From Escherichia coli 042 (GTDB lineage: Bacteria; Pseudomonadota; Gammaproteobacteria; Enterobacterales; Enterobacteriaceae): a DNA stretch of 64,000 bases. Below are positions 1 through 63,827 of the stretch, piece after piece. Made by a program: the position numbers and the translations under genes. Within the stretch, counting starts at the first letter, position 1. Each line of letters begins with the position of its first letter. The notes under the pieces are model-generated. The model did not search any database. It worked only from the letters and a program-made list of their open reading frames with translations, and was not told the origin of the DNA. The stretch lies in the NCBI RefSeq assembly GCF_000027125.1, contig NC_017626.1; one strand, written 5' to 3'.

Positions 1-463
1 CAAGAATATCCATAACACCTTTCCGATCTATTCCGGCATCTCTAAATGGTAAACTAATAGTTAAATTTGCATTTTTCGAACTATATCCTTCACGGTAATC
101 TTCGTCTGCTCTTATTGCTACATAGCTTGTAACTTTATCACCAGCATTAAGCATCGGACGAACCCACTGTTCGAAGGGCGCGAGTTTTAACTGACGAGTA
201 CACCAACGAGTCTGCGGCGAGGGTAGAAAATGATTATATTCACGTAACCAGAAATCAAAACCACGTCTAGGGTTTAGTCTGGCAATTGGTTTGCCTAAAA
301 ATCCTTCTAATCGCCCCAAAAACTCATAGACTTCAGGTAATTCTTTACCTGTATCAGTAAAGAAATAGTCGATATCTAACTCGGGGCGTGTCTGGCGCAT
401 GAAAACAGCAAGTGCAGCACTGTCTTTACCCCCAGAAATACCAAGTACATGCTTTTCAGTCAT
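1..463 (-). CDS. PAPS-reductase-family PP-loop protein, N-terminal ~154 codons (gene continues past window start)
   Basis: Minus-strand translation from ATG at 461-463: MTEKHVLGISGGKDSAALAVF...FFTDTGKELPEVYEFL...RWCTRQLK. SGGxDS PP-loop motif and PAPS-reductase-like TDTG region. 2-bp gap after stop of upstream ATPase gene. Confidence 0.7.
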   Translation of the reverse strand, partial: MTEKHVLGISGGKDSAALAVFMRQTRPELDIDYFFTDTGKELPEVYEFLGRLEGFLGKPIARLNPRRGFDFWLREYNHFLPSPQTRWCTRQLKLAPFEQWVRPMLNAGDKVTSYVAIRADEDYREGYSSKNANLTISLPFRDAGIDRKGVMDIL

Positions 464-3400
464 TCTTAACCTCAACATCATGCTGAGCGATTTTAATACA
501 AGCTTTACCTAATGCAGCCATTATAATATCTGGGTTTAATCCTTTTCCAGATAATGTTCTAATTAACTCACCGGCGAGGTTGTCAATCTGATGGTTGAAT
601 TGCTCAGGTATACTGAATTCGTGTTTGAATGTTTTCATTTCTGAACCAGCTCCAATAACCACTGCAAATGCCTCGCTTGATGGTTTTCGTCCTTGGATCG
701 ATACTAATGCTTCGGATTGGCGAAACCGCAGTGCAAAATTGGCTATTTCCATAAGTGCTAAATCAATATCTCGATCATTCCAGTCTCTTGGAGGCTTGTT
801 TGCAGCTAGGCTGAGTATACCTTCTATAGAATAATGACTACCATCGTACGTAGCTAAACGTGTTGAAAAGGCATCTTGCCGAAGTTCGCCAGTGATACCG
901 GATAACGTTTCAGCACGTTTTCGTAGTGTAGATAAGTCATCTTTATTAGCATTCAGAGCTTTTAGCATTCTTGATGCAAATTGGTCTAAGAGTTTGTCAT
1001 AGGCACTCCAAAGTTCTTTTACTGGAGCCTGTAATGCATCAACATAATTTTTCCCACTTTCTACATTTAGAGCCGCGGCTAAATCAATAAATAAAACTTT
1101 ATGAGGATCGCTAGCTTTTAATAGTGTATCTCGTACCTTCTTCGCATTAGATGAAAGTCTCGCCGTCCTTTGTGTCCAATTTGGGAGTCCAACAATCATG
1201 GCAACTAGACTTCTGGCAGCTTCTAACGGTTCAGCTGAATTAGACATGAGACCAATAGAATCAAGAAGTTTACCAATTCCTACTAGAATCTTTTGTTTTT
1301 CATCATCAATTACAATCCACCGCAAGGAAAAACGTTTTTCATCCTGCAAGTATTCATCAATATCTGCATCAGTAAAAGTAGGAATAAATAATCCATCTTT
1401 ATAAATAGCAATATTACTTTTAGATGCCAGAAGGAAGGCCATAAATATTATCGGTATAACACCTTTTTTTAAACCAAATGGAGGTTTAGCCCAAAGGGTA
1501 TGAATATCAGATACTGATATCATTTGATTTTTATTTTTAATGAAATCATGCGTTTTCTTCCAAAGACCATAAAACGACGAATGCTTGTCGCTGACCGCAG
1601 GAAGAAAATGATAATACCCATCATGATGCTTCGCATACAAGCCGGTACGATGGAGAATCGTTTCATATAGGCCGCGTGAGGCAGGATATCCCTCAATTCC
1701 AAGATGGAGTTCACCCTCATTTTCTAGCATTCGATATAACAATTCTTTCCTGGCTTTTACGCTATTGCTGGATAAATTATCACGATTAACTAATTCACTC
1801 CATAACCTTGGAGCTTTGTAGTAAATATTATCTGCAAGAGAGGATGCAATTGATGATAAAGTACCTTTAGGTTCCGCCTGAGCAGAATCTATACACCATT
1901 CCGCAGTCGCTAATGCCTCTGCTAACTGTTCTTCTAATGTTGATTGCGTTGCACTTATCCTTGCTTGGACTTCTCTTCGTGCAACAGCATCACCTTGTAA
2001 TTCATGTCCACGTTTAGTTTGGACTATTTGAAGTGCTAGGAGTTCGGCACCTAAATCTTCTATGCGCAGGTAGTTATGTGGAATCCCGGCAACAATGGGC
2101 CATGGCTTTGAACGAGAAGCATCAGCACAAATTATTTTAGCTTGTTCTTCATTTACATTTCTTTCAGGAAGTGCCAGAAGAAATAATCCAAACTCTCCGT
2201 TACGTGGCTGGAACTCTTCTGAATATTTTTTTACCTCGTTAAGGTGACAAAGTGCAATATTCATCCAGCGAAAAGTACCAGTTTGATGGTAATGCCTTTT
2301 TGCAATTACAGGATAAAGATTAGCAATTTTATTCAGTTGACTAAAATCTGTTCCAAGCATGGTTGCACGTGATTGTGCAACGGCTTGGTCAATATTAAAA
2401 TCACTTCCTTCAAAAACAGACCATGCCCCGGTATGTTTTTTGAATATGATAACACGCCATTTAGAAAGATCTTCGAGTGCGGATCTAATATTTTCAATAG
2501 AAGTATTCAAGAATAATGATTCTAGTATGCTTGTTTCAGCGGTCAATCCTGAACCATCTTTGAAAAGGTCAAGTATTGCAATACATTTAATTAAATCAAT
2601 ATGCAATATATTATCAGATTTTGCCTCCGCACGTTCTACAGCGTCTACCGCTTGTGCCCAACGATGTCCATCATTAGAGGCCAAAATTAATTGTTCAAGA
2701 TTTGCTCTTAAGTAATCGAAATAGTTTGAGGGAAGATACCAAGTAGCCTCTTCAAATGTGGTTAGATTGAGATAGTTTTGAAACCCGAAAGGTTCAGAGG
2801 ACGAGAGAAAACCAAAAGTTGAACGCTCGTTCTGTCCAAACTGACGTTTTGATATAGGTCCTAATAAAGCAGCCATTACCGGGTGTAAAGGCCAACACTT
2901 GGATAATGCATAATCATATTGCTTTCCAACCATTGGGCGTCGATCATAAATAGCATCCGCGACTACTTGCGCTACTTTTTGAGTGTATTTGGGTCTTTTT
3001 TTAACATCTAACGCTTTACCTATAAGTTCAACAACTTCATCACTCCCTGCAACTAAGGGAATATCAGCATAACGGCCTTGGATTTTAGTCCACTCTTCAC
3101 GAGTTTCAAGTCCAAGTCGAACAGCATATTGTCCAAAAGATTGATGTAATATACCTAAGATAATGACTTTACCATTTGTACGTGCTGCAGATTCAGCAAG
3201 CTCTTGGTAAAAATAAATATCATCGCCATTTCCTAAAGCTGATGCTTCAAGGAACTTACCTAGCTCGTCAATGATAAGCAAGGTACCATCTAACTTCGCT
3301 TCATCTGCAGCACTGCATATGTGTTTAATAAGTAATGATGCTGATTTTTTATAATCTTTATCACTACCACAAACATTATTCAGAGTTTGCGAAATTTGTT

Positions 3401-3800
3401 GGATTATGCTACCTCTGCGGCCAATAACTGGAAGTATTAACCATCCTTTTTTAACTTGGAATGCTTTATCAAAATCACTTTGTGAATCGACATTTAACAA
3501 TGACCTTGCTTTTTCACGTAGAGCTTTGTTAGGTGATAATGAACTTGCAAGAACTAACGCTAATGATGATTTCCCACTTCCATACGGACCAGTCCATGTG
3601 AAAGCTCGCTGTTGGCTATTCAGAACCTGCTTGGACATGTTTTCAAGAACGCTTTGTGCCGTGCCATTGCATACATATCCATCAAGCGCATCTTCGCGGC
3701 CAAGATCAGCATCAATACGGATGGAACGTTGGTATTGTCTCGCAATGCGAACCTGTTCTGAAAGAAGGTTTTTATTATGTTTAGTCATAAGCCTTTCCAA
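456..3800 (-). CDS. Large P-loop NTPase (1114 aa), uncharacterised
   Basis: Supplied ORF; Walker A GPYGSGKSS near residue 70 and Walker B-like LLIIDELGKF near residue 175; long C-terminal extension. Overlaps upstream gene by 20 bp. AT-rich codon usage. Confidence 0.6.
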   Translation of the reverse strand: MERLMTKHNKNLLSEQVRIARQYQRSIRIDADLGREDALDGYVCNGTAQSVLENMSKQVLNSQQRAFTWTGPYGSGKSSLALVLASSLSPNKALREKARSLLNVDSQSDFDKAFQVKKGWLILPVIGRRGSIIQQISQTLNNVCGSDKDYKKSASLLIKHICSAADEAKLDGTLLIIDELGKFLEASALGNGDDIYFYQELAESAARTNGKVIILGILHQSFGQYAVRLGLETREEWTKIQGRYADIPLVAGSDEVVELIGKALDVKKRPKYTQKVAQVVADAIYDRRPMVGKQYDYALSKCWPLHPVMAALLGPISKRQFGQNERSTFGFLSSSEPFGFQNYLNLTTFEEATWYLPSNYFDYLRANLEQLILASNDGHRWAQAVDAVERAEAKSDNILHIDLIKCIAILDLFKDGSGLTAETSILESLFLNTSIENIRSALEDLSKWRVIIFKKHTGAWSVFEGSDFNIDQAVAQSRATMLGTDFSQLNKIANLYPVIAKRHYHQTGTFRWMNIALCHLNEVKKYSEEFQPRNGEFGLFLLALPERNVNEEQAKIICADASRSKPWPIVAGIPHNYLRIEDLGAELLALQIVQTKRGHELQGDAVARREVQARISATQSTLEEQLAEALATAEWCIDSAQAEPKGTLSSIASSLADNIYYKAPRLWSELVNRDNLSSNSVKARKELLYRMLENEGELHLGIEGYPASRGLYETILHRTGLYAKHHDGYYHFLPAVSDKHSSFYGLWKKTHDFIKNKNQMISVSDIHTLWAKPPFGLKKGVIPIIFMAFLLASKSNIAIYKDGLFIPTFTDADIDEYLQDEKRFSLRWIVIDDEKQKILVGIGKLLDSIGLMSNSAEPLEAARSLVAMIVGLPNWTQRTARLSSNAKKVRDTLLKASDPHKVLFIDLAAALNVESGKNYVDALQAPVKELWSAYDKLLDQFASRMLKALNANKDDLSTLRKRAETLSGITGELRQDAFSTRLATYDGSHYSIEGILSLAANKPPRDWNDRDIDLALMEIANFALRFRQSEALVSIQGRKPSSEAFAVVIGAGSEMKTFKHEFSIPEQFNHQIDNLAGELIRTLSGKGLNPDIIMAALGKACIKIAQHDVEVKND

Positions 3801-4671
3801 GCATGTTCAATTTAATTACTTCTGTTTCTGATGTTTTACGATGAACCTGGCGTAAACCAGCTGTATCAGTCCATATAAATGAACCTTCAGTTAACTCTTC
3901 TAATGCGAATAATCGTTCTGCAATAGAGTCTTCATCGAGCTTAAATACTCTACCCGGAGAACCGTCCCCATATGCAATTGTTTCGAAGGATAATGAGCTG
4001 AGATTTAGGGCCTTACGCTCCCAATAATCGATCAGAGCATAAGCAAATACACCATCAGACAAAGTAATCTTTGGACCTCGACGAAATGAAAAGTGTCCTT
4101 TTTTTTCTTCAGCTAGTAAACCTAATTCACCAAGCATAGGTTCGGCAAAGTCTTCAGGAGTGGTTCCACTCGACCGCGGTGCATAACTACGCAAACATGT
4201 CTCAATATCTCGAGAAAGTGTCATTGGTGATAGTTTTCTCCCAGGACAACATTGCGTAGCATAGTCAGCTAAAAGAGCCCGGAGGTCTTCTTGTGTAAAA
4301 GATGAAGAAACAACATGGTTAAATAACCAGTACCAAGTTGTCGAGCGTTCTCCTTTTCCTGAAAGCTTCCAATGGCTAAGCCATGCTGTCGAGGGATGCT
4401 CTGAATAAGGATCAAGCCCATGTTCGCTAAATATTTTAATAGCAAATTCTGTAAGTTTGAATTTACCATCCTCTTCTCGCATTACTTCACAGGCGAGTGC
4501 CCAATGCTTGATTGATGCGACCATGTTTTTGCCTACACCAAATTTGGCAATGGCCTCATCATTCGAAAAAACCGATTTGTCAATAGAACCATCCGGCGCT
4601 GCATAACTGCAGGTTTTTTTTAACCACATTTGTCTTAGTGGGAAGGTCTCGTGACCTGAAAAGTGAGCCAT
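3781..4671 (-). CDS. Hypothetical protein (296 aa), first gene of three-gene module; possibly a DUF4007-type protein (from memory, unverified)
   Basis: Supplied ORF MAHFSGHETFPLRQMWLKK...; ATG at 4669-4671; 20-bp overlap with ATPase start suggests translational coupling. Confidence 0.5.
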   Translation of the reverse strand: MAHFSGHETFPLRQMWLKKTCSYAAPDGSIDKSVFSNDEAIAKFGVGKNMVASIKHWALACEVMREEDGKFKLTEFAIKIFSEHGLDPYSEHPSTAWLSHWKLSGKGERSTTWYWLFNHVVSSSFTQEDLRALLADYATQCCPGRKLSPMTLSRDIETCLRSYAPRSSGTTPEDFAEPMLGELGLLAEEKKGHFSFRRGPKITLSDGVFAYALIDYWERKALNLSSLSFETIAYGDGSPGRVFKLDEDSIAERLFALEELTEGSFIWTDTAGLRQVHRKTSETEVIKLNMLGKAYD

Positions 4672-8892: not shown

Positions 8893-9066
8893 TTTTCTTT
8901 CTTCCAGTCAGGACTGCATCCGATTAATCGTAAGCGCTCCGAGAAGTACGTAGCGTAAGGATTATTTTACAGCTGAGAAGTTTCAGTGCAGCAGTTCATG
9001 CACACGGTTCGACGGCTAGTCATTGATCTTCATAATTACCTCGCGTAAAAAACGGGGTAAGGCCGC

Positions 9067-9496
<430 letters not shown>

Positions 9497-9537
9497 TGAC
9501 CAGTTTTTGTTGACCACTACAAATAAATAAAAGAGTT

Positions 9538-9612
9538 GCAGTGCTTGCTCGGTAAGAAAACAATGGAAGTTGAGATCCTCAAAGAAGCTGTGGAGTACAC
9601 CACTCTACAGTA
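9538..9612 (+). pseudogene. IS2-like (IS3 family) orfA C-terminal remnant
   Basis: Translation [22 protein letters not shown] matches C-terminus of IS2 InsC ([24 protein letters not shown]) at 15084-15449. Confidence 0.5.
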
Positions 9613-14119: not shown

Positions 14120-15083
14120 CTTACTGAAAAAACACCACAATCTTGTTAAACATCGTCGGGTTGGACTGATTACGTTGCACTTTCACCACATATTCCAGCT
14201 TATCTATTTGGCTTATCACCTACTCCAGACGCTGGCCATCCTTGACCAGTAGCCAGATATGGCTTTTGTCGCAGTCCTGAATCGGCAGGCAGAGAATGTC
14301 TTCAACGTTAAGAGCGCGACGGGCAAAAGCCCACAAAGGTGAGTCATTACACCCGGATGGTAAACAGGCACTTCCTTGTTGTAGAAGCCGTTATATTGTC
14401 CATAATGTCTGGGTTTTTAATGCATACTGGGTAACAACCGGACGAATCTTCGAATATCACTGGCGCTGCCAGCCGGTTTGAATTCATCTCACAACCCTGC
14501 ATAGAGCGAATCTCCTGCCTGCACGTCACTCCACTCCATGGTATCAACTTCACACTCTTTATCTGCGGCTAGCTTCAGCCACCAGATAAGCATCGACTAT
14601 GAAAGATGAGCCATGACAACATAACGTTGGTAACGCTCTGACGCCTTAATGGAAGATGCCTGCCACCATAGGGAATGTAAACGACTGAAGTGTGGCCTTT
14701 AATGCCGTGAACGGCTCATGGTCTCCTGGCACGGTTGCCGCCCCAACCTGTAACAACATTCCACAGTACAATGTCTGTCAGAGTCAGAGCCTCCCATGCT
14801 TGTTGTAGTAACTCTACCAGTTACGAACATCCTTCCTCAAAATTGTTGTCATATCTCGCATGGAAGAAAAGATCCTGGCTAAGGAGCAACACACAACGTA
14901 TTGCGGAACTTGCATATTTTTCCTGTAACTAGTGTATTACCACATATGGTAATAGCTACCTGTGTGGTTTCGCTGGATAGCAAGGGGATTTATAGACTGG
15001 CCCCCTGAATCTCCAGACAACCAATATCACTTAAATAAGTGATAGTCTTAATACTAGTTTTTAGACTAGTCATTGGAGAGCAG

Positions 15084-15449
15084 ATGATTGATGTCTTAGG
15101 ACCGGAGAAACGCAGACGGCGTACTACACAGGAAAAGATCGCTATTGTTCAGCAGAGTTTTGAACCGGGAATGACGGTCTCCCTTGTTGCCCGGCAACAC
15201 GGTGTGGCAGCCAGCCAGTTATTTCTCTGGCGCAAGCAATACCAGGAGGGAAGTCTTACTGCTGTGGCCGCAGGAGAGCAGGTCGTTCCTGCCTCTGAAC
15301 TTGCTGCTGCCATGAAGCAGATTAAAGAACTCCAGCGCCTGCTCGGCAAAAAAACGATGGAAAATGAACTCCTTAAAGAAGCCGTTGAATACGGGCGTGC
15401 AAAAAAGTGGATAGCGCACGCGCCCTTATTGCCCGGGGATGGGGAGTAA
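15084..15449 (+). CDS. insC: IS2 transposase OrfA (InsC)
   Basis: [26 protein letters not shown]...; supplied ORF starts at an upstream GTG. Confidence 0.9.
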
Positions 15450-16310
15450 GCTTAGTCAGCCGTTGTCTCCGGGTGTCGCGTGCGCAGTTGCACGTAATTC
15501 TCAGACGAACCGATGACTGGAAAGATGGTCGCCGCAGCCGTCACTCAGATGATACGGATGTGCTTCTCCGTATACACCATGTTATCGGAGAGCTGCCCAC
15601 GTATGGTTATCGTCGGGTATGGGCGCTGCTTCGCAGACAGGCCGAACTTGATGGTATGCCTGCGATCAATGCCAAACGTGTTTACCGGATCATGCGACAG
15701 AATGCGCTGTTGCTTGAGCGAAAAACCGCTGTACCGCCATCGAAACGGGCACATACTGGCAAAGTGGCCGTGAAAGAAAGCAATCAACGATGGTGCTCTG
15801 ACGGGTTCGAGTTCCGCTGTGATAACGGAGAAAAACTGCGAGTCACGTTCGCGCTGGACTGCTGTGACCGTGAGGCACTGCACTGGGCAGTCACTACGGG
15901 CGGCTTCGACAGTGAAACAGTACAGGACGTCATGCTGGGAGCGGTGGAACGCCGCTTCGGCAACGAGCTTCCGGCGTCTCCAGTAGAGTGGCTGACGGAT
16001 AATGGTTCATGCTACCGGGCTAATGAAACACGGCAGTTTGCCCGGATGTTGGGGCTTGAACCGAAGAACACGGCGGTGCGGAGTCCGGAGAGTAACGGCA
16101 TAGCAGAGAGCTTCGTGAAAACGATAAAGCGTGACTACATCAGTATCATGCCTAAACCAGACGGGTTAACGGCAGCAAAGAACCTTGCAGAGGCGTTCGA
16201 GCATTATAACGAATGGCATCCGCATAGTGCACTGGGTTATCGCTCGCCACGGGAATATCTGCGGCAGCAGGCCAGTAATGGGTTAAGTGATAACAGGTGT
16301 CTGGAAATAT
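15407..16310 (+). CDS. insD: IS2 transposase OrfB (InsD), 3' end altered by nested IS insertion
   Basis: DDE transposase; native ...RCLEI stop replaced, supplied ORF reads through to 16381 inside the IS66-family element. Confidence 0.8.
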
Positions 16311-16395
16311 GTAAGCGTAAACTGACCGCCGTATGTAGCCATCAGACGAGAATTGGTAACTTAGACGCCCATCTGATATAGACGGACATCTAAGT

Positions 16396-16821
16396 ATGGA
16401 ATTACAGGACTGGCGAAAAGAACCTCGTAAAAACTATTCGAATGAATTCAAACTTCGTATGGTGGAACTGGCATCACAACCTGGAGCTTGTGTTGCACAG
16501 ATTGCACGTGAAAATGGCGTCAATGATAATGTTATTTTCAAATGGCTCAGGCTCTGGCAGAACGAAGGGCGTGTTTCGCGGCGTCTTCCGGTAACGACCT
16601 CTTCTGACACTGGCGTTGAATTATTACCTGTAGAAATAACGCCGGATGAGCAGAAAGAACCTGTGGCGGCCATTGCGCCGTCTTTATCCACTTCCACTCA
16701 GACCAGAGTCAGTGCCAGTTCCTGCAAGGTGGAATTCCGTCACGGTAACATGACGCTGGAAAATCCATCGCCAGAGCTGCTCACGGTGTTGATCCGTGAA
16801 CTGACCGGGAGGGGAAGATGA
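16396..16821 (+). CDS. tnpA: IS66-family TnpA (Orf1)
   Basis: YSNEFKLRMVELASQPGACVAQIARENGVNDNVIFKWL. Confidence 0.85.
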   Translation: MELQDWRKEPRKNYSNEFKLRMVELASQPGACVAQIARENGVNDNVIFKWLRLWQNEGRVSRRLPVTTSSDTGVELLPVEITPDEQKEPVAAIAPSLSTSTQTRVSASSCKVEFRHGNMTLENPSPELLTVLIRELTGRGR

Positions 16822-17168
16822 TCTCACTCCCATCAGGTACCCGTATCTGGCTCGTTGCCGGCGTTACCGATATGCGTAAATCCTTCAACGGACTGGGAGA
16901 ACAGGTACAACATGTGCTGAATGATAATCCCTTCTCCGGTCACCTGTTTATCTTCCGTGGCCGACGGGGTGACACCGTCAAAATTCTTTGGGCTGATGCT
17001 GATGGTCTGTGCCTGTTCACCAAACGCCTGGAGGAAGGCCAGTTTATCTGGCCTGCGGTACGTGACGGCAAGGTATCCATTACCCGCTCGCAACTGGCAA
17101 TGCTCCTCGATAAGCTGGACTGGCGTCAGCCAAAAACATCCAGCCGTAACTCACTGACAATGTTGTAA
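16818..17168 (+). CDS. tnpB: IS66-family TnpB (Orf2)
   Basis: MISLPSGTRIWLVAGVTDMRKSFNGL...; overlaps tnpA stop by 4 bp. Confidence 0.85.
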   Translation: MISLPSGTRIWLVAGVTDMRKSFNGLGEQVQHVLNDNPFSGHLFIFRGRRGDTVKILWADADGLCLFTKRLEEGQFIWPAVRDGKVSITRSQLAMLLDKLDWRQPKTSSRNSLTML

Positions 17169-17198
17169 AAAACTCCTGACCGCATTATAAAAACGGTC

Positions 17199-18812
17199 AT
17201 GAGTCAGAAATACCTCATTCGCATCGCAGAGCTGGAAAGGTTGCTCTCTGAGCAGGCTGAAGCCCTCCGTCAGAAAGACCAGCAACTGAGTCTGGTTGAA
17301 GAGACGGAAGCCTTCCTGCGCTCTGCACTGACACGTGCCGAAGAAAAGATCGAAGAAGATGAACGGGAAATAGAACATCTGCGGGCTCAGATAGAAAAAC
17401 TGCGCCGGATGCTGTTCGGTACCCGTTCTGAAAAACTGCGTCGTGAAGTTGAACTGGCTGAGGCTCTGCTGAAACAACGTGAACAGGACAGCGATCGTTA
17501 CAGTGGGCGGGAAGACGATCCTCAGGTTCCCCGCCAGTTGCGACAGTCGCGCCATCGTCGTCCGTTACCGGCACACCTTCCCCGTGAAATACACCGCCTG
17601 GAGCCAGAAGAAAGCTGTTGCCCGGAGTGTGGCGGTGAGCTGGATTATCTGGGGGAAGTCAGCGCTGAACAGCTGGAACTGGTGAGCAGTGCCCTGAAAG
17701 TGATCCGCACAGAACGGGTAAAAAAAGCCTGTACAAAATGTGACTGTATTGTTGAAGCACCGGCGCCGTCCCGCCCGATAGAGCGTGGTATCGCGGGCCC
17801 CGGATTACTTGCCCGCGTGTTAACGGGAAAATACTGCGAACATCTGCCACTGTATCGTCAGAGTGAAATCTTTGCCCGCCAGGGTGTCGAACTGAGCCGG
17901 GCCTTACTCTCCAACTGGGTTGACGCGTGCTGCCAGTTAATGACACCGGTGAATGATGCCCTGTACCGTTATGTAATGAACACCCGCAAGGTTCACACTG
18001 ATGACACACCGGTAAAGGTACTGGCACCGGGTCAGAAAAAGGCGAAAACAGGGCGTATCTGGACGTATGTCCGGGATGATCGCAATGTGGGTTCGTCATC
18101 TCCTCCAGCGGTCTGGTTCGCGTACTCGCCGAACCGGCAGGGGAAACACCCGGAGCAACACCTCCGCCCCTTCCGGGGTATCCTGCAGGCGGATGCGTTC
18201 ACAGGTTACGACAGGTTGTTCAGTGCAGAACGTGAAGGTGGTGCACTGACAGAAGTTGCGTGCTGGGCCCATGCCCGGCGAAAAATCCACGATGTATACA
18301 TCAGCAGCAAAAGTGCGACGGCAGAAGAAGCCCTGAAGCGAATCAGTGAACTGTACGCCATCGAGGATGAAATACGGGGATTACCGGAGTCAGAGCGTCT
18401 TGCCGTCAGGCAGCAGCGAAGCAAAGTGTTACTGACGTCGCTGCATGAATGGATGGTGGAGAAGAATGGTACGCTGTCGAAAAAATCCAGACTGGGCGAA
18501 GCGTTCAGCTATGTACTGAATCAGTGGGATGCCCTCTGTTATTACAGTGATGACGGTCTGGCGGAGGCGGATAATAATGCTGCGGAAAGAGCGCTTCGTG
18601 CAGTCTGTCTCGGAAAGAAAAACTTTATGTTCTTTGGCAGCGATCACGGCGGCGAGCGTGGAGCACTGTTGTACGGGCTGATCGGCACCTGCCGTCTGAA
18701 CGGTATCGATCCGGAAGCGTATCTGCGCCATATCCTGAGCGTACTGCCGGAATGGCCTTCCAACCGAGTTGATGAACTCCTGCCATGGAACGTAGTACTC
18801 ACCAATAAATAA
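17199..18812 (+). CDS. tnpC: IS66-family transposase TnpC (537 aa)
   Basis: N-terminal coiled coil, CxxC...CxxC zinc motif (CCPECGGEL...CTKCDC), DDE-type core. Confidence 0.85.
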   Translation: MSQKYLIRIAELERLLSEQAEALRQKDQQLSLVEETEAFLRSALTRAEEKIEEDEREIEHLRAQIEKLRRMLFGTRSEKLRREVELAEALLKQREQDSDRYSGREDDPQVPRQLRQSRHRRPLPAHLPREIHRLEPEESCCPECGGELDYLGEVSAEQLELVSSALKVIRTERVKKACTKCDCIVEAPAPSRPIERGIAGPGLLARVLTGKYCEHLPLYRQSEIFARQGVELSRALLSNWVDACCQLMTPVNDALYRYVMNTRKVHTDDTPVKVLAPGQKKAKTGRIWTYVRDDRNVGSSSPPAVWFAYSPNRQGKHPEQHLRPFRGILQADAFTGYDRLFSAEREGGALTEVACWAHARRKIHDVYISSKSATAEEALKRISELYAIEDEIRGLPESERLAVRQQRSKVLLTSLHEWMVEKNGTLSKKSRLGEAFSYVLNQWDALCYYSDDGLAEADNNAAERALRAVCLGKKNFMFFGSDHGGERGALLYGLIGTCRLNGIDPEAYLRHILSVLPEWPSNRVDELLPWNVVLTNK

Positions 18813-19039
18813 GCGTCAATACGGTGCTCCGTTGACGCTTACGGAAATATAGGGGCAAATCCAATTTATTCGCAAGTAAAATGCCTGATAAAATACACGA
18901 ATCTAGTAATCATCAATATTTACTCTGGTCGAATGACGCGTGAAGTGGACGGCCAACAGACGCAGTCAGTGATCTACAGCCTGTTGAATAAAACCCCGGA
19001 TGCTTCCCCCGATTCTGCAAGTAATACTTCGGTTATTTG

Positions 19040-19145
19040 CACTATTTTATCCCTGTTGAATTTGGTTAAGCCGGTGCAGACGTGCCGGGAAACGCACACC
19101 TGAACCGGCACAATAAAATACAATACAACCCCCTGTTACTGGAGA
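19040..19145. repeat. 106-bp repeat, copy 1 (copy 2 at 47474-47579, one mismatch)
   Basis: cactattttatccctgttgaatttggttaagccggtgcagacg...ccccctgttactggaga present at both positions. Confidence 0.8.
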
Positions 19146-19445
19146 AATGCCTGCGCCGGGGTCCGATATGGCGGTATTGTTGCAGCCTGCGGCATGGCTC
19201 AGGGGATGGATTTGATGGGCAATATGGCTCCGTTTATTCTGCGTGGTGTCACGCTGAAAGGGATTGATAGCGTCATGTTCGCGAAAGAGAAAAGAGCAGC
19301 AATCTGGCAACAGGCGATATAGTATTTGCCAGAGTCCAGAATGGATAGTCTCACTACCGTTTATCCGCTCAGTGACGCCATCACTGTGGCTGAAAAACTT
19401 CTGAGTGGCGGAATTCGCGGTCGTGCAGTCATTCAATATAGCTAA
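19140..19445 (+). pseudogene. YhdH/AcuI-like oxidoreductase, C-terminal fragment with frameshift
   Basis: Translation [36 protein letters not shown] then, in another frame, LPESRMDSLTTVYPLSDAITVAEKLLSGGIRGRAVIQYS*; no N-terminal part. Confidence 0.45.
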
Positions 19446-19962: not shown

Positions 19963-22119
<2,157 letters not shown>

Positions 22120-44983: not shown

Positions 44984-45221
44984 GTTTATAAGGTACGGAC
45001 AGCAGTATCGCTTAGTTTTTCAAATTCATGTATGTGAACAATATTGGGGTTCCGGCGTAGACCCCCAATGAAAGCGTCACCACGTGAAAACATGCCTGCA
45101 CGGTTTACACGTCATCCCATGGTGGCAGCCGGTTAACTTTCCTGCGCCACCAGTGGAAAAAGGCCATAAGCAGTCCGAACAAAAGTAAGCGTACAGCGAG
45201 GGCCGTATTGACGGGGATGTG

Positions 45222-46607
45222 TTATTCAGCTGGCAGTGCTATGCGCCACGGAAGCAGTTCGCTGACCCGGTTGACCGGCCAGTCTGCTATGACGCCAAGC
45301 ACATGGCGAAGGTAGCTTTCTGGATCCACGTCATTCAGTTTGCACGTCCCGATCAGGCTGTACAGTAGCGCTCCCCGCTCACCACCATGGCCAGAGCCGA
45401 AGAACAGGGTCTTCATCTTTTCACGCAACCAGCTTTCCAGGGATTTCAACAGCGGTTTCGTTTTTCGCTGACGTTCAGCAAGCCGCTGCTCTGCCGGCAT
45501 TCCCCTTATATCCGCCTCTATGGCGTACAACTGACCGATCTGCTCCAGGGCTTCTTCCGTCAGTGCTGACGGGATGCGGACGTGCACATCGTGGATCTTT
45601 CGGCGGGCATGAGCCCAGCAGGCAGCTTCCGTTATCCCACCATTGCGATACAGCTCGTTGAACCCGGCGTACGCATCCGCTTGCAGCACACCGCTGAAGC
45701 AAGCAAGATGAGTCTGCGGATGGATGCCTTTTCTGTCCGGGCTGTAAGCGAACCACACTGCAGGTGCCAACGCTGACCCGGCATTGCGGTCATCACGAAC
45801 ATACGCCCACAACCGCCCGGTCTTCGTCTTCTTATTACCCGGCAGCAGTACCTGGACCGGGGTATCATCGGCATGGAGTTTGCCGTCAGTCATGACATAG
45901 CCATGAAGCGCCTCTTCCAGCGGAGACAGCAGCCGGCAGCATGCATCCACCCAGCCCGACAGCAGTGAACGGCTCAGCTCCACACCTTGCCGGCCGTATA
46001 TTTCTGACTGGCAATACAGCGGGGTGTGCTCTGCATACTTCGAGGTCAGCACGCGGGCCAGCAGCCCCGGTCCGGCGATACCCCGCTCGATGGGCCGCGA
46101 AGGTGCAGGTGCCTGCACGATGGTATCGCACTGAGTACAGGCATGTTTTTCCCGTACCGTCCGGATAACCCGGAAGGCGCTACGCATCAACTCCAGCTGT
46201 TCGGCGGTATCCTCGCCCAGATAGCTCAGTGAACCGCCGCAGTTCGGGCAGCACGGCGCCGCAGGCAACAGTCGCTTTTCGTCACGGGGTAGTGATTCAG
46301 GGAACGGCTTACGGGTGCGGGTCTGACGCAACGGACGCTGTACTGCCGGGTCATACACCCTAACAGTCAGCGTATCGCTCTCTTTCTGAAGCCGGTTCAG
46401 ATCGGCTTCCATTTGTGCGATACGGCGGGAGACTTTTTCGGAACGACTGCCGAAGTTCATCCGGCGGAGTTTATCCAGCTGCGCCTGCAGATGGTCTATT
46501 TCGCGCTCCCGGTTGCTCAGCTTTTCCTGCAGGGCGTGGATCAGCGCTTCCTGTTCGGCCAGGCGCTGTTTCAGCAGGAAGATGTCGTCAGAAGAGATGT
46601 CGTTCAT
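45222..46607 (-). CDS. tnpC: IS66-family transposase TnpC (461 aa, ~76 aa shorter than copy 1)
   Basis: CCPNCGGSL...CTQCDT zinc motif and DDE core; region between ...[11 protein letters not shown] and ...[11 protein letters not shown] is shorter than in copy 1. Confidence 0.8.
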
Positions 46608-46656
46608 AAGCCCGTATTTTACCGGGCTTATTCTGTGACAACCAGGATAAAGAGAT

Positions 46657-47004
46657 TTACAGCATGGTCAGGGAGGTCAGCAGCCGCTTGGGCTGTCGCC
46701 AGTCGATACCTTCCAGCAGCATCGCCAGCTGCGCCTGCGTAAGGAACACTTTGCCATCACGGGCTGACGGCCAGGCGAAGCGCCCACGCTCCAGCCGTTT
46801 GGTCAGGAGGCACAGTCCGTCACCGGTGGACCACAGCAGTTTAACCTGACTGCCGCTGCGGCCCCGGAAAATGAAAATATGGCCGGACATGGGATCGTCT
46901 TTCAGCGCCGTTTGTACTTTCGCAGCCAGGCCGTTGAAGCTATTTCTCATATCGGTGATACCGGCAACCAGCCAAATTTTGGTCCCGGAAGGTAACGGGA
47001 TCAT
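46657..47004 (-). CDS. tnpB: IS66-family TnpB
   Basis: [26 protein letters not shown]... Confidence 0.85.
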
Positions 47005-47381
47005 CGCTTCAGTTCCTGTATCAGCAGAGTCAGGAGCTTTTCGCTGACATTGCCATTGAAGCGGAGCGTCCCGTGCCGGAACGTTACCTCACAGCTGATA
47101 CTGAGGGTTTCCGGGTCCTCTGCGAGCGATTCTGGCTGTTCGGCAGCTGCATCGAGAGTCACAGGAAGTAGCTGGGGGCTCTCTGAAGAAGGTAATAGCA
47201 GCTTTCCCTCGCGCCATTGTTGTCGCCATTTGAACAACAGATTGGCGTTAATGCCATTTTCAAGAGCAAGTTTTGAGATGGATATCCCGGGTTCACAGGA
47301 GGCAGCAACGAGCAGCTGTTTAAATTCGGGAGGATAATTAGGGAAGCCTTTTCGCCTGCCGGGAGTCACATTTTTCTGCAT
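47001..47381 (-). CDS. tnpA: IS66-family TnpA
   Basis: ...PEFKQLLVAASCEPGISISKLALENGINANLLFKWR...; start placed at ATG 47379-47381. Confidence 0.8.
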   Translation of the reverse strand: MQKNVTPGRRKGFPNYPPEFKQLLVAASCEPGISISKLALENGINANLLFKWRQQWREGKLLLPSSESPQLLPVTLDAAAEQPESLAEDPETLSISCEVTFRHGTLRFNGNVSEKLLTLLIQELKR

Positions 47382-47473
47382 ATCTGACACTTTGGTTCCC
47401 ACTACTTATTTGGTGGACACCACTTTGTCTAATTCGTCAGATTCTGACCAGACGGTTCAGGCTGTACGCTTAC

Positions 47474-47579
47474 CACTATTTTATCCCTGTTGAATTTGGT
47501 TAAGCCGGTGCAGACGCGCCGGGAAACGCACACCTGAACCGGCACAATAAAATACAATACAACCCCCTGTTACTGGAGA
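47474..47579. repeat. 106-bp repeat, copy 2 (copy 1 at 19040-19145)
   Basis: Abuts the IS66-family left end at 47473. Confidence 0.8.
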
Positions 47580-47735
47580 TACGAATGGAATGACGAGGCA
47601 GCCTGTCAGTCACAGGGGGCTGTTGGCATAAAATCAACGGAAAGGCCACCAACACCGGAATTAAGCTCCACAGTCCCCGCACTGGCAATCCATTCCCGGG
47701 AAAGGCATCACCGCAAACTGCTCCGGAGGCAACCA

Positions 47736-48170
47736 TTACAGCCTCTGTAACGGATTATCAGCCCTGGCATCTTCCGACGGCACCTCCTGCCGCCCCCACG
47801 CCCTGCTGTATACCCCGGTACCGCAGCGTGGGCAGCACTTTTCCCCCTCATAATCTTCGTCACACATCACACAAAACCACTTTCTCACCTTCACCGTATA
47901 ATCCGGAACCGTCATGCCCTGCAGATGCAAACGACGGGCCTCTTTCTCTGCCGGGTCAAGCCAGGTACATCGCAGCAGGATTTTTTCAGCGACAGTCATC
48001 TGGTCATGTTCAAACCACGGTGGTTGTCCGTCATTGCCCCGCTGAAGTGTTAACGGGCATCCACAGGACACACAGCACAAAACGTCCTGTCGGTTGTGCT
48101 TCGCAGCTTCTTTCGCCGTAACAAAATGGCCTTTGCTGTCATTCGCCATATAACAGTTCAGAATTCGCAT
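47736..48170 (-). CDS. Cys-rich putative zinc-binding protein (paralog B, ~144 aa)
   Basis: MRILNCYMANDSKGHF...CCVSCGCPL...PWFEH...WFCVMCDEDYEGEKCCPRCGTG; ATG at 48168-48170 preceded by AGGAGG; overlaps stop of paralog A by 13 bp. Confidence 0.6.
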   Translation of the reverse strand: MRILNCYMANDSKGHFVTAKEAAKHNRQDVLCCVSCGCPLTLQRGNDGQPPWFEHDQMTVAEKILLRCTWLDPAEKEARRLHLQGMTVPDYTVKVRKWFCVMCDEDYEGEKCCPRCGTGVYSRAWGRQEVPSEDARADNPLQRL

Positions 48171-48565
48171 ATTTCCTCCTGAGTTGTCCGGGGAATACTG
48201 AATCCTCCGGTCTGGCAGTGTGTGCAGTACTGCTCCCCATAATAATCGTGGTGACATTGTCTGCAGTGCCAGCTGGCTTTACGCACCACGGGTAAGGCAT
48301 CCGGTACGAATTGCTGCAGACGTTTAATCAACTGTATTTCTCTGCGCTCCGGCCTGACATAAGGGCACTGTTGACCGTGCTCTGTCAGCCTGTCGTCAGT
48401 GTGTTCAAACCAGGGAAGTTCAGTTTCGTATTGCGGATGGTATCTGAGTGCACTGCCACACAAGTGGCAGGTGTAGTTAGCATAAGGTGCGGCCTGTGCA
48501 GTACGGGCGCCCGTCAGACGTCCGTTGCCATCAAGAGCGATAAAGGATTTTGCGTACATAGTCAT
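48158..48565 (-). CDS. Cys-rich putative zinc-binding protein (paralog A, 135 aa)
   Basis: MTMYAKSF...CHLCGSAL...PWFEH...WHCRQCHHDYYGEQYCTHCQTG; same motif architecture as paralog B. Confidence 0.6.
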   Translation of the reverse strand: MTMYAKSFIALDGNGRLTGARTAQAAPYANYTCHLCGSALRYHPQYETELPWFEHTDDRLTEHGQQCPYVRPERREIQLIKRLQQFVPDALPVVRKASWHCRQCHHDYYGEQYCTHCQTGGFSIPRTTQEEICEF

Positions 48566-48818
48566 ATACCTCAGCCGCCAGACGACACGCAGGCAACAGC
48601 CGTCCCGGTACGGGCAGCGTGGTCAGGGTGTGAATGGCGGTTCAGTTAAAATCTGGACTGGAGTTTGGGTAAAGCAGGCTGGTTGCTGTTACAGCACTGT
48701 GGTTGTCACACAATGGAACACTGACGTAAAAAACAGTCAGTGGGCGAGTGGATACATCGTTGCTGCCAGACAACAACCCATACTTTTGGTTTGCCGGATA
48801 TTGGCGCGCCAGTCGTGC

Positions 48819-49424
48819 TCAACTCCGGCTACAGCCAAAATTGCGCTCACCGGTGCAGTGAGCTTTGGTATGCTCCTTCGCCAGATAGTCAGCACGTTCC
48901 AGCACTTGCTGAAAGCCGGTGTCATCATTACGCGCCAGCCACACCGCCGGCCAGGCCGGAAAATGCACCAGCGTGGCATGGCACCCGACATCCACTCCCA
49001 GGGCACTGCACCACGCCTGTTTAATCATCCCGGCCAGAGACTCCGGAGCGCGGTAATCACCGGCACGACACCAGGTATCCCGGTTGACCAGCAGCATCAG
49101 GTGATAGTGTTTTTTACCTTTGCACTCCCCAAACTCCCGGGCCCAGACGTAATGCAGGGTTGTGGGATGCACGCGTTTACCTTCCCGATGCTTACGTTTC
49201 TGGTAAGCGTCGATTCGGGCTTTCAGGGCATTGATGAAGCGGGATATCACAGCTGCGTCCGTTGCTGCCGGTACATCCGGGAGACGCAGGTCAACCCGCA
49301 ATGCCGTCAGGCGGGGATGAACATTCAGTGCGTGCCGCACCGTCTCACGAATACGTTGCTGCCAGAAGGGGTTGTATTTGTAGGTCATGGTTAAATCTCC
49401 GTATGGTTCATACGGAATAGCCAC
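48819..49424 (-). CDS. Hypothetical protein (201 aa); possibly inovirus Gp2-like family (tentative)
   Basis: Supplied ORF MAIPYEPYGDLTMTYKYNPFWQQRIRETV...; upstream of the Cys-rich pair on the same strand. Confidence 0.5.
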   Translation of the reverse strand: MAIPYEPYGDLTMTYKYNPFWQQRIRETVRHALNVHPRLTALRVDLRLPDVPAATDAAVISRFINALKARIDAYQKRKHREGKRVHPTTLHYVWAREFGECKGKKHYHLMLLVNRDTWCRAGDYRAPESLAGMIKQAWCSALGVDVGCHATLVHFPAWPAVWLARNDDTGFQQVLERADYLAKEHTKAHCTGERNFGCSRS

Positions 49425-62142: not shown

Positions 62143-63048
62143 CTATATTTCCAGACACCTGTTATCACTTAACCCATTACTGGCTTGCTGCCGTAGATAT
62201 TCCCGTGGCGAGCGATAACCCAGTGCACTATGCGGATGCCATTCGTTATAATGCTCGAACGCCTCTGCAAGGTTCTTTGCTGCCGTTAACCCGTCTGGTT
62301 TGGGCATGACACTGATGTAGTCACGCTTTATCGTTTTCACGAAGCTCTCTGCTATGCCGTTACTCTCCGGACTCCGCACCGCCGTGTTCTTCGGTTCAGG
62401 CCCCAACATCCGGGCAAACTGCCGTGTTTCATTAGCCCGGTAGCATGAACCATTATCCGTCAGCCACTCTACTGGAGACGCCGGAAGCTCGTTGCCGAAA
62501 CGGCGTTCCACCGCTCCCAGCATGACGTCCTGTACTGTTTCACTGTTGAAGCCGCCCGTAGTGACCGCCCAGTGCAGTGCCTCACGGTCACAGCAGTCCA
62601 GCGCGAACGTGACTCGCAGTTTTTCTCCGTTATCACAGCGGAACTCGAACCCGTCAGAGCACCATCGCTGATTACTTTCTTTCACAGCCACTCTGCCGGT
62701 ATGTGCCCGTTTCGATGGCGGTACAGCGGGTTTTCGCTCAAGCAACAGCGCATTCTGGCGCATGATCCGGTAAATACGTTTGGCATTGATCGCAGGCATA
62801 CCATCAAGTTCGGCCTGTCTACGAAGCAGCGCCCATACCCGACGATAACCATATGTGGGCAGCTCTCCGATAACATGGTGTATACGGAGAAGCACATCCG
62901 TATCATCTGAGTGACGGCTGCGGCGACCATCTTTCCAGTCATCGGTTCGTCTGAGAATGACGTGCAACTGCGCACGCGACACCCGGAGACAACGGCTGAC
63001 TAAGCTTACTCCCCATCCCCGGGCAATAAGGGCGCGTGCGCTATCCAC
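62143..63048 (-). CDS. insD: IS2 transposase OrfB (InsD, 301 aa)
   Basis: Full-length DDE transposase ending ...RCLEI. Confidence 0.9.
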
Positions 63049-63371
63049 TTTTTTGCACGCCCATATTCAACGGCTTCTTTAAGGAGTTCATTTTCCATCG
63101 TTTTTTTGCCGAGCAGGCGCTGGAGTTCTTTAATCTGCTTCATGGCGGCAGCAAGTTCAGAGGCAGGAACGACCTGTTCTCCTGCGGCCACAGCAGTAAG
63201 ACTTCCCTCCTGGTATTGCTTGCGCCAGAGAAATAACTGGCTGGCTGCCACACCGTGTTGCCGGGCAACAAGGGAGACTGTCATTCCCGGTTCAAAACTC
63301 TGCTGAACAATAGCGATCTTTTCCTGTGTAGTACGCCGTCTGCGTTTCTCCGGTCCTAAGACATCAATCAT
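63006..63371 (-). CDS. insC: IS2 transposase OrfA (InsC)
   Basis: [18 protein letters not shown]... Confidence 0.9.
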
Positions 63372-63462
63372 CTGCTCTCCAATGACTAGTCTAAAAACTA
63401 GTATTAAGACTATCACTTAAATAAGTGATATTGGTTGTTTGGAGATTCAGGGGGCCAGTCTA

Positions 63463-63827
63463 GCTACTCCCTTCGTGTTGTTGATGAATCTGACCGGACC
63501 TCAGCAGACTGCACGCCACCATTTGTTGCCCTTACCGGCATACGCTGCAGTACCGCACATATCACGGAAACGGACAACGCCTGGCTGTACTCGCTGTCAC
63601 ACCAGACCAGTGACTTCGGTGAATCAGAATGGATTCATTTTACCGGTACCGGTTATCTGTTACGTACCGATGCGTGGTCATACCCGGTTCTGCGGCTTAA
63701 GCGCCTGGGGCTGTCAAAAACGTTCCGTCGTCTGGTCGTCACACTCATCCGGCGTTATGGTGTCAGTCTCATTCATCTGGATGCCAGTGCCGGATATCTG
63801 CCGGGTTTACCCACTTTCGACTGGTAA
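63463..63827 (+). pseudogene. yeeW: yeeW-like gene, C-terminal part (split by IS2)
   Basis: SLRVVDESDRTSADCTPPFVALTGIR... continues the frame of 62000-62131 after removal of IS2 and one GCTAC copy. Confidence 0.65.

Follow-up and report, generated by a model that had tools for sequence, protein, structure and literature searches.

A 106-bp direct repeat delimits a 28-kb mosaic block in the leuX island of Escherichia coli 042 and probably serves as a recombination substrate

Introduction

In classical Salmonella and E. coli duplication genetics, segments bounded by direct repeats amplify and delete. Heteroresistance amplicons likewise arise by tandem amplification, through RecA-dependent unequal crossing-over between repeats (PMC12892994). 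For conjugation in E. coli, homology-facilitated illegitimate recombination (HFIR) is on record (PMC3240628). The islands beside leuX are themselves known: one survey catalogues islands of the Fec/VirK/MsbB2/Ag43 type, PAI-ED1a-leuX and PAI-CE10-leuX among them (PMC7545054), and another report describes GI-leuX (PMC4374849).

The stretch analyzed here, 64,000 nucleotides of E. coli 042 (hereafter the window), belongs among the leuX genomic islands of the Fec/VirK/MsbB2/Ag43 type. It resembles PAI-ED1a-leuX, PAI-CE10-leuX, and GI-leuX in gene content and in its site beside leuX/ahr, with tRNA-Leu and ahr lying just to the left in related genomes, and its closest match is E. coli CV839-06 (99.8% identity). 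A text search of PMC7545054 and PMC4374849 finds no mention of a direct repeat. The locus is like the repeat-bounded heteroresistance amplicons (PMC12892994) in that direct repeats bracket 20-28 kb, in that single and triplicated states occur together with a probable deletion, and in that the junction repeats are hybrid; it is unlike them in that its repeats are 106 bp of island backbone rather than IS or rrn copies. The island type is already known, and the structure is ordinary island mosaicism that involves no new element or mechanism.

Results

The repeat pair and its surroundings

The window contains two 106-bp direct repeats (the unit, copies A and B; Table 1) that are identical at 105 of 106 positions and spaced 28,434 bp apart. 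The sole difference is a T at 19083 in copy A and a C at 47517 in copy B, and the identity ends sharply at both edges. Since a 43-nt stretch of the unit has exactly two occurrences in the window and none in 100 shuffles, chance is excluded and the repeat is real, as a preliminary description of this DNA had claimed. That description had also placed one copy against an IS66-family element lacking a target-site duplication, and the other about 175 bp beyond an IS2/IS66 composite and beside a YhdH-like pseudogene fragment. Each of these observations holds: copy B starts one base past the element end at 47473, while copy A begins 176 bp after the composite end at 18863 and is fused at 19145/19146 to the C-terminal part of an acuI/YhdH-type gene.

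Table 1. Features of the window that bear on the repeat pair.
Feature	Position	Strand	Remarks
Unit copy A, 106 bp	19040..19145		Left: continuous with native X; right: fused to acuI'
Unit copy B, 106 bp	47474..47579		Left: IRL of ISEc8 derivative; right: native 3' flank of zinc-ribbon operon
X, native island sequence left of unit, 176 bp	18864..19039		Resumes from 14992 across IS2::ISEc23
IS2 carrying ISEc23	14993..18863 (IS2 parts 14993-16310 and 18851-18863)	+	5-bp target duplication ATTTA; bystander
ISEc23, 2,532 bp, ends GTAAGCGT...	16311..18842	+	In right inverted repeat of IS2; 8-bp target duplication GGAAATAT
acuI' fragment (acrylyl-CoA reductase/YhdH-type MDR oxidoreductase, C-terminal part)	19146..19322	+	About codon 228 of 327 to premature stop
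Mosaic block between units, 28,328 bp	19146..47473		Gene order from annotation of near-identical strain CV839-06
IS100 within acuR	19964..21915 (ends approximate)	+	Not in strain 127
Solo ISEc8 IRL remnant, 82 bp	27046..27127	-	Identical to 47392-47473, same orientation
DUF6404' pseudogene	45105..45184	-	Final 26 codons of 115-aa gene; cut by IRR of ISEc8 derivative
ISEc8 derivative, 2,289 bp	45185..47473	-	Both ends GTAAGCGTACAGC; no target-site duplication
Native right-hand context of copy B	47580..49424	-	156-bp 3' flank, then zinc-ribbon and Gp2 genes
Two DUF7828/Zn_ribbon_11 genes	47736-48257 and 48158-48565	-	Right of copy B
Inovirus-Gp2-family gene	48819-49424	-	Right of zinc-ribbon genes

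DeoR, an ilvN-like pseudogene, IS2 with ISEc23, X, the unit, and acuI' follow one another around copy A. The block then comprises acuI', acuR interrupted by IS100, DUF2254, BCCT, an IS3-family element, the solo ISEc8 IRL, msbB2(lpxM)-virK-capU-shf, IS3, fecEDCBARI, IS1, a ymgB/ariR-like gene, a phytase-like esterase gene, DUF6404', and the ISEc8 derivative.

Two other features of the window deserve mention. According to the CV839-06 annotation, the minus strand of positions 1-4671 encodes a PAPS-reductase-family protein, a protein of about 1,110 aa, and a DUF4007 protein; at the end of the island nearest leuX, their genes resemble an Ssp/Dnd-type module for DNA phosphorothioation or defense. 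Beside an aldose-epimerase gene, an IS66-family tnpA remnant forms a 226-nt inverted repeat of 77% identity between 9072-9297 and 16420-16645.

The unit as island backbone

The preliminary description had proposed looking for the 106-bp sequence in other genomes and for alternative arrangements in long-read assemblies. Both lines were informative: of 5,426 complete E. coli genomes, 2,082 contain the unit (median one copy per genome, maximum four), and the empty site, the single block, and the triplicated block described below are all seen in long-read assemblies. In all RefSeq matches listed, the unit is unannotated.

Three contexts recur. The commonest places the unit between the ISEc8 derivative and the zinc-ribbon genes; the esterase-DUF6404'-ISEc8 derivative junction on its far side is found in 2,165 genomes, among them that of Nissle 1917, where copy B is the sole copy. 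The second is the X-unit-acuI' junction, present in 591 genomes. The third is an empty site, found in 238 of the 5,426 genomes, in which DeoR, ilvN', X, the unit, and the zinc-ribbon genes follow one another uninterrupted. Most empty-site alleles match the window at only about 95.6% identity and have a 16-bp indel, which marks them as an old, independent allele. An apparent truncation of the unit at position 80 in strain LWY6 proved to be an artifact of a 16-bp indel splitting the megablast match.

In a multiple alignment, the empty-site alleles are collinear with copy A on the left and with copy B on the right. This collinearity identifies the unit as ordinary intergenic backbone of the island, located 3' of the zinc-ribbon operon. 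By these sequence comparisons the unit is native, non-coding leuX-island backbone 3' of the zinc-ribbon/Gp2 operon and no part of an IS. Copies A and B carry differing markers in different lineages, a pattern compatible with several histories.

Short open reading frames overlapping the units have no Pfam match, and the unit shows no coding signal. An E-value search of 47300-47900 against Rfam returned chance eukaryotic matches only, and the predicted fold of the unit is not significant (z-scores of -1.7 and -1.0). No promoter was found at the unit, and its one weak terminator-like hairpin scores no better than shuffled sequences. With no Rfam match, promoter, or significant fold, an RNA element or regulatory site was rejected. 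A 31-mer of the unit has no exact match in a species-representative collection (one genome per species), and its matches in a plasmid collection are confined to E. coli; every one of these records is typed as non-mobilizable, and several are as large as a chromosome.

The left edge of copy B

The outer end of the element at 45185-47473 (GTAAGCGTAC..., minus strand) directly precedes copy B. This element is 99.1-99.6% identical to ISEc8 but has lost 153 bp from the 3' part of tnpC, which reduces it from 2,442 to 2,289 bp and TnpC from 512 to 461 aa. The deletion joint has a 5-bp overlap. The derivative occupies one fixed site in more than 2,000 genomes, and it is probably immobile. Intact ISEc8 and the solo IRL have the same terminus as the derivative, and the unit starts just past it, at base 47474. 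The unit thus lies outside the known IS; the preliminary description had named the opposite outcome, a unit belonging to a known IS or other standard element, as fatal to its own interpretation.

The sequences flanking the derivative, GAACAAAA and CACTATTT, do not constitute a target-site duplication. The DUF6404 gene is intact on colicin-type plasmids, and its N-terminal part is found nowhere in the window. These hybrid flanks, with DUF6404' on the IRR side and the unit on the IRL side, point to recombination between IS copies or to an IS-adjacent deletion. The solo IRL, in the same orientation as the derivative, lies between the IS3-family element and the msbB2 region and shows that at least one further ISEc8 copy once resided inside the block. 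We asked whether this remnant is the partner that the DUF6404 insertion lacks and rejected the idea, the sequence flanking 27127 (AAACAACT...) being neither the DUF6404 N-terminus nor the expected 8-bp duplication GAACAAAA. A copy of ISEc8 beside a zinc-binding dehydrogenase gene in strain JP538 was likewise set aside as a separate insertion in rspB. A precursor inserted between X and the unit, in which X would still border the IRR of ISEc8, occurs in none of the 5,426 genomes.

The right edge of copy A

An intact acuI of 327 aa lies beside acuR on the Enterobacter plasmid pE76_001 and is 96.5% identical at the DNA level to the fragment in the window. In this comparison, acuI homology begins at 19146, the base after the last of the unit, and the two sequences share no bases across the junction. 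With no such microhomology, the join of the unit to acuI is blunt and illegitimate. The acuI' fragment, besides missing the first 228 or so codons, terminates prematurely (after WQQAI), with intact acuI running about 38 codons further.

Blocks of acuI-acuR-DUF2254-BCCT, either intact or interrupted by IS100, are also found in the tRNA-Phe islands of 027_SK3 and XJ5.2 (three loci). In the XJ5.2 island the block continues through IS3-family elements to msbB2-virK-capU-shf and a ymgB/ariR-like gene. A large module of the segment between the repeats therefore recurs in another island family, and the tRNA-Phe-island blocks are plausible donors of the left part of the 28.3-kb block.

Insertion sequences near copy A

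Strain 127 has the same X-unit-acuI' junction and lacks IS2, ISEc23, and IS100. Given this absence and the target duplications of their own that they carry, the three elements are later simple insertions, and the comparison indicates that they played no part in the duplication. With an identity of only 65-68%, ISEc23 and the ISEc8 derivative are not recombination partners. In strains PO06101 and SCPM-O-B-9427, ISEc23 is inserted at the unit-acuI' junction itself, in PO06101 directly after GGAGAAAT. The IS2 of the window has a second, inverted copy 45.8 kb away (14982-16310 versus 62145-63473), the match running about 11 bp past the left IS2 end at 14993; this inverted pair could invert most of the island.

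An amplified allele and a probable deletion in other genomes

We searched for the reciprocal junction of a crossover between the units with a chimeric query in which the unit is preceded by the ISEc8 derivative and followed by acuI'. Exactly one genome matched, that of the urinary isolate 20AR0734 (NZ_CP187211.1, 4261739-4324019). In this single assembly, four units bound three tandem copies of a block with a period of 20,724 bp. The array is preceded by X-unit, and the repeated segment reads acuI'-acuR-DUF2254-BCCT-IS-fecEDCBARI-IS1-esterase-ISEc8 derivative-unit. The two internal units combine the left flank of copy B with internal markers of copy A (a C at about position 77 and a 5-bp AATAC insertion), and such hybrid units are as predicted for unequal crossing-over inside the unit.

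The opposite outcome may be represented by strain DFL.5 (NZ_CP104843.1), whose empty site (positions 9001-9544 of locus L012) is 99.8% identical to a chimera of the window built from the left side of copy A and the right side of copy B. On the right flank, its identity to the window reaches 99.7-99.9%, versus about 95% for the other empty-site alleles. To judge from these identities, the DFL.5 site looks like a precise deletion produced by unit-by-unit recombination, and it could also be the ancestral state of the same lineage. The sister dolphin isolate DFK.1 has an island allele different from that of DFL.5. In DFL.5, an IS100 lies between the two zinc-ribbon genes.

The direct repeats thus probably serve in homologous unequal crossing-over, with amplification of the fec block in one assembly as an outcome and its deletion as a probable second one. 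As a substrate for homologous recombination, the unit has the direct orientation and near-identity (105/106) of a low-copy segmental duplication, and natural alleles with a hybrid junction repeat exist in the triplication of 20AR0734 and the candidate deletion of DFL.5. A repeat of 106 bp is near the lower end of the size range for efficient homologous recombination.

Discussion

With good confidence, we read the unit as native leuX-island backbone that was doubled around the 28.3-kb block, most likely by one illegitimate and one homologous join, and whose two copies are now substrates for recombination. Because X-unit and unit-zinc-ribbon flank are the only native junctions and the empty sites are an old lineage, a single-copy progenitor is needed. 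This ancestral island would have read DeoR, ilvN', X, unit, and zinc-ribbon genes. The incoming block would already have ended in esterase, DUF6404', ISEc8 derivative, unit, and zinc-ribbon genes, the widespread arrangement of copy B. On its right side the block would have undergone a homologous crossover with the uninterrupted island, and on its left side the end of the unit would have been joined illegitimately to codon 228 of acuI. The 106 bp may then be understood as the overlap kept by both partners, its left limit set by the position of the IS in one and its right limit by the illegitimate break in the other.

The presumed route is HFIR, and a deletion between related tandem islands would yield the same product. 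One illegitimate plus one homologous join is the likeliest origin on the junction sequences, and no intermediates (tandem islands before deletion, or ISEc8 with its IRR next to X) were found among the genomes. The locus is like the HFIR events of E. coli conjugation (PMC3240628) in that its right junction runs into homologous backbone and its left junction, unit to acuI, is blunt and non-homologous. It differs from them in that HFIR is deduced here from the end-product only and in that the inserted DNA is far larger than in the experiments. The ISEc8 derivative likewise matches known IS copies with hybrid flanks, carrying DUF6404' at its IRR and the unit at its IRL, but such a history would explain just one of the two secondary junctions, and target duplications of the IS66 family are 8 bp, not 106 bp, long.

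A different starting point for the two-copy state would be a circle, consisting of the unit and the segment from acuI' to the ISEc8 derivative, that integrated by homologous recombination in the unit. Circles are an expected by-product of unit-by-unit recombination, and the tandem array of 20AR0734 demonstrates that a circle-type junction can form. We nonetheless regard this origin as improbable: the circle would first need to acquire the unit-acuI' junction through the same illegitimate event, so that the problem is only relocated, and no free or plasmid-borne copy of this junction was found, the plasmid-collection matches being chromosome fragments.

The preliminary description had attributed the repeat to IS-mediated shuffling of one flank to two places, and this interpretation is partly supported by the sequences compared here. 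What stands is that the unit is no part of an IS, that other arrangements exist in long-read assemblies, and that an IS66-family end without a target-site duplication, a footprint of IS-associated rearrangement, sets the left edge of copy B. What does not stand is any involvement of the IS2/IS66 composite; nor does an IS end form the right edge of copy A. That the IS2/ISEc23 composite, or IS66-family transposition generally, carried the same flank to both places would be in keeping with the presence of IS66-family elements near both copies and with the missing target duplication of the ISEc8 derivative. It is nevertheless very unlikely, as IS2, ISEc23, and IS100 have target duplications of their own and are missing from genomes with an identical X-unit-acuI' junction, as ISEc23 and the ISEc8 derivative are too divergent to have been recombination partners, and as copy A has its non-IS right edge.

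We give hardly any credence to a dedicated site-specific system that moves the 28-kb block as a cassette with the unit as its attachment or recombination site, even though empty, single, and tandem-multiple states are all bounded exactly by the unit. The only recombinases encoded in the block are IS transposases, and its left end is a truncated gene. The window contains no tRNA gene that the unit could overlap, and the unit is internal to the island and the block has no integrase, so that it does not match tRNA-derived attL/attR sites. In addition, 106 bp with markers exchanged inside the unit suits general homologous recombination.

That the 106 bp belong to a mobile element, whether as an extended IS end, as a MITE, or as a dispersed repeat of REP/ERIC type, has next to no probability: although the unit adjoins an IS end in about 2,000 genomes, it does not always travel with one (the 238 empty-site genomes have it with no adjoining IS66-family element), it lies outside the terminal inverted repeats of the IS66-family element (GTAAGCG...) and has none of its own, the ISEc8 terminus is fixed independently by intact ISEc8 and the solo IRL, its 106 bp exceed the 8-bp target duplication of the IS66 family and abut a truncated acuI at the left end of the block, no genome has more than four copies, these share one constant backbone context, and the Rfam, folding, and 31-mer searches above point the same way.

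Returning to the reading of a backbone segment doubled by two joins, the repeat shows exactly where the 28-kb mosaic insertion begins and ends within the leuX island, and the analysis separates the bystander IS insertions from the two junctions that built the structure. The two-copy arrangement around the block occurs in about 590 genomes, roughly one-ninth of sequenced E. coli. The predicted consequence is instability, by loss and by tandem amplification, of a virulence- and fitness-associated block that includes fec, msbB2, virK, capU, and shf, which is relevant both to assembling and comparing leuX islands and to reading fec copy number in clinical isolates. More speculatively, and we consider this unlikely, the 106-bp repeats may pre-wire the fec block for gain and loss, with copy-number changes such as that of 20AR0734 being a recurrent, selected adaptation to iron-limited host niches. 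If this were true, the triplication of the fec block in 20AR0734 would be no one-off accident, and in the version of the block found in the window, msbB2, virK, capU, and shf would be included in such changes.
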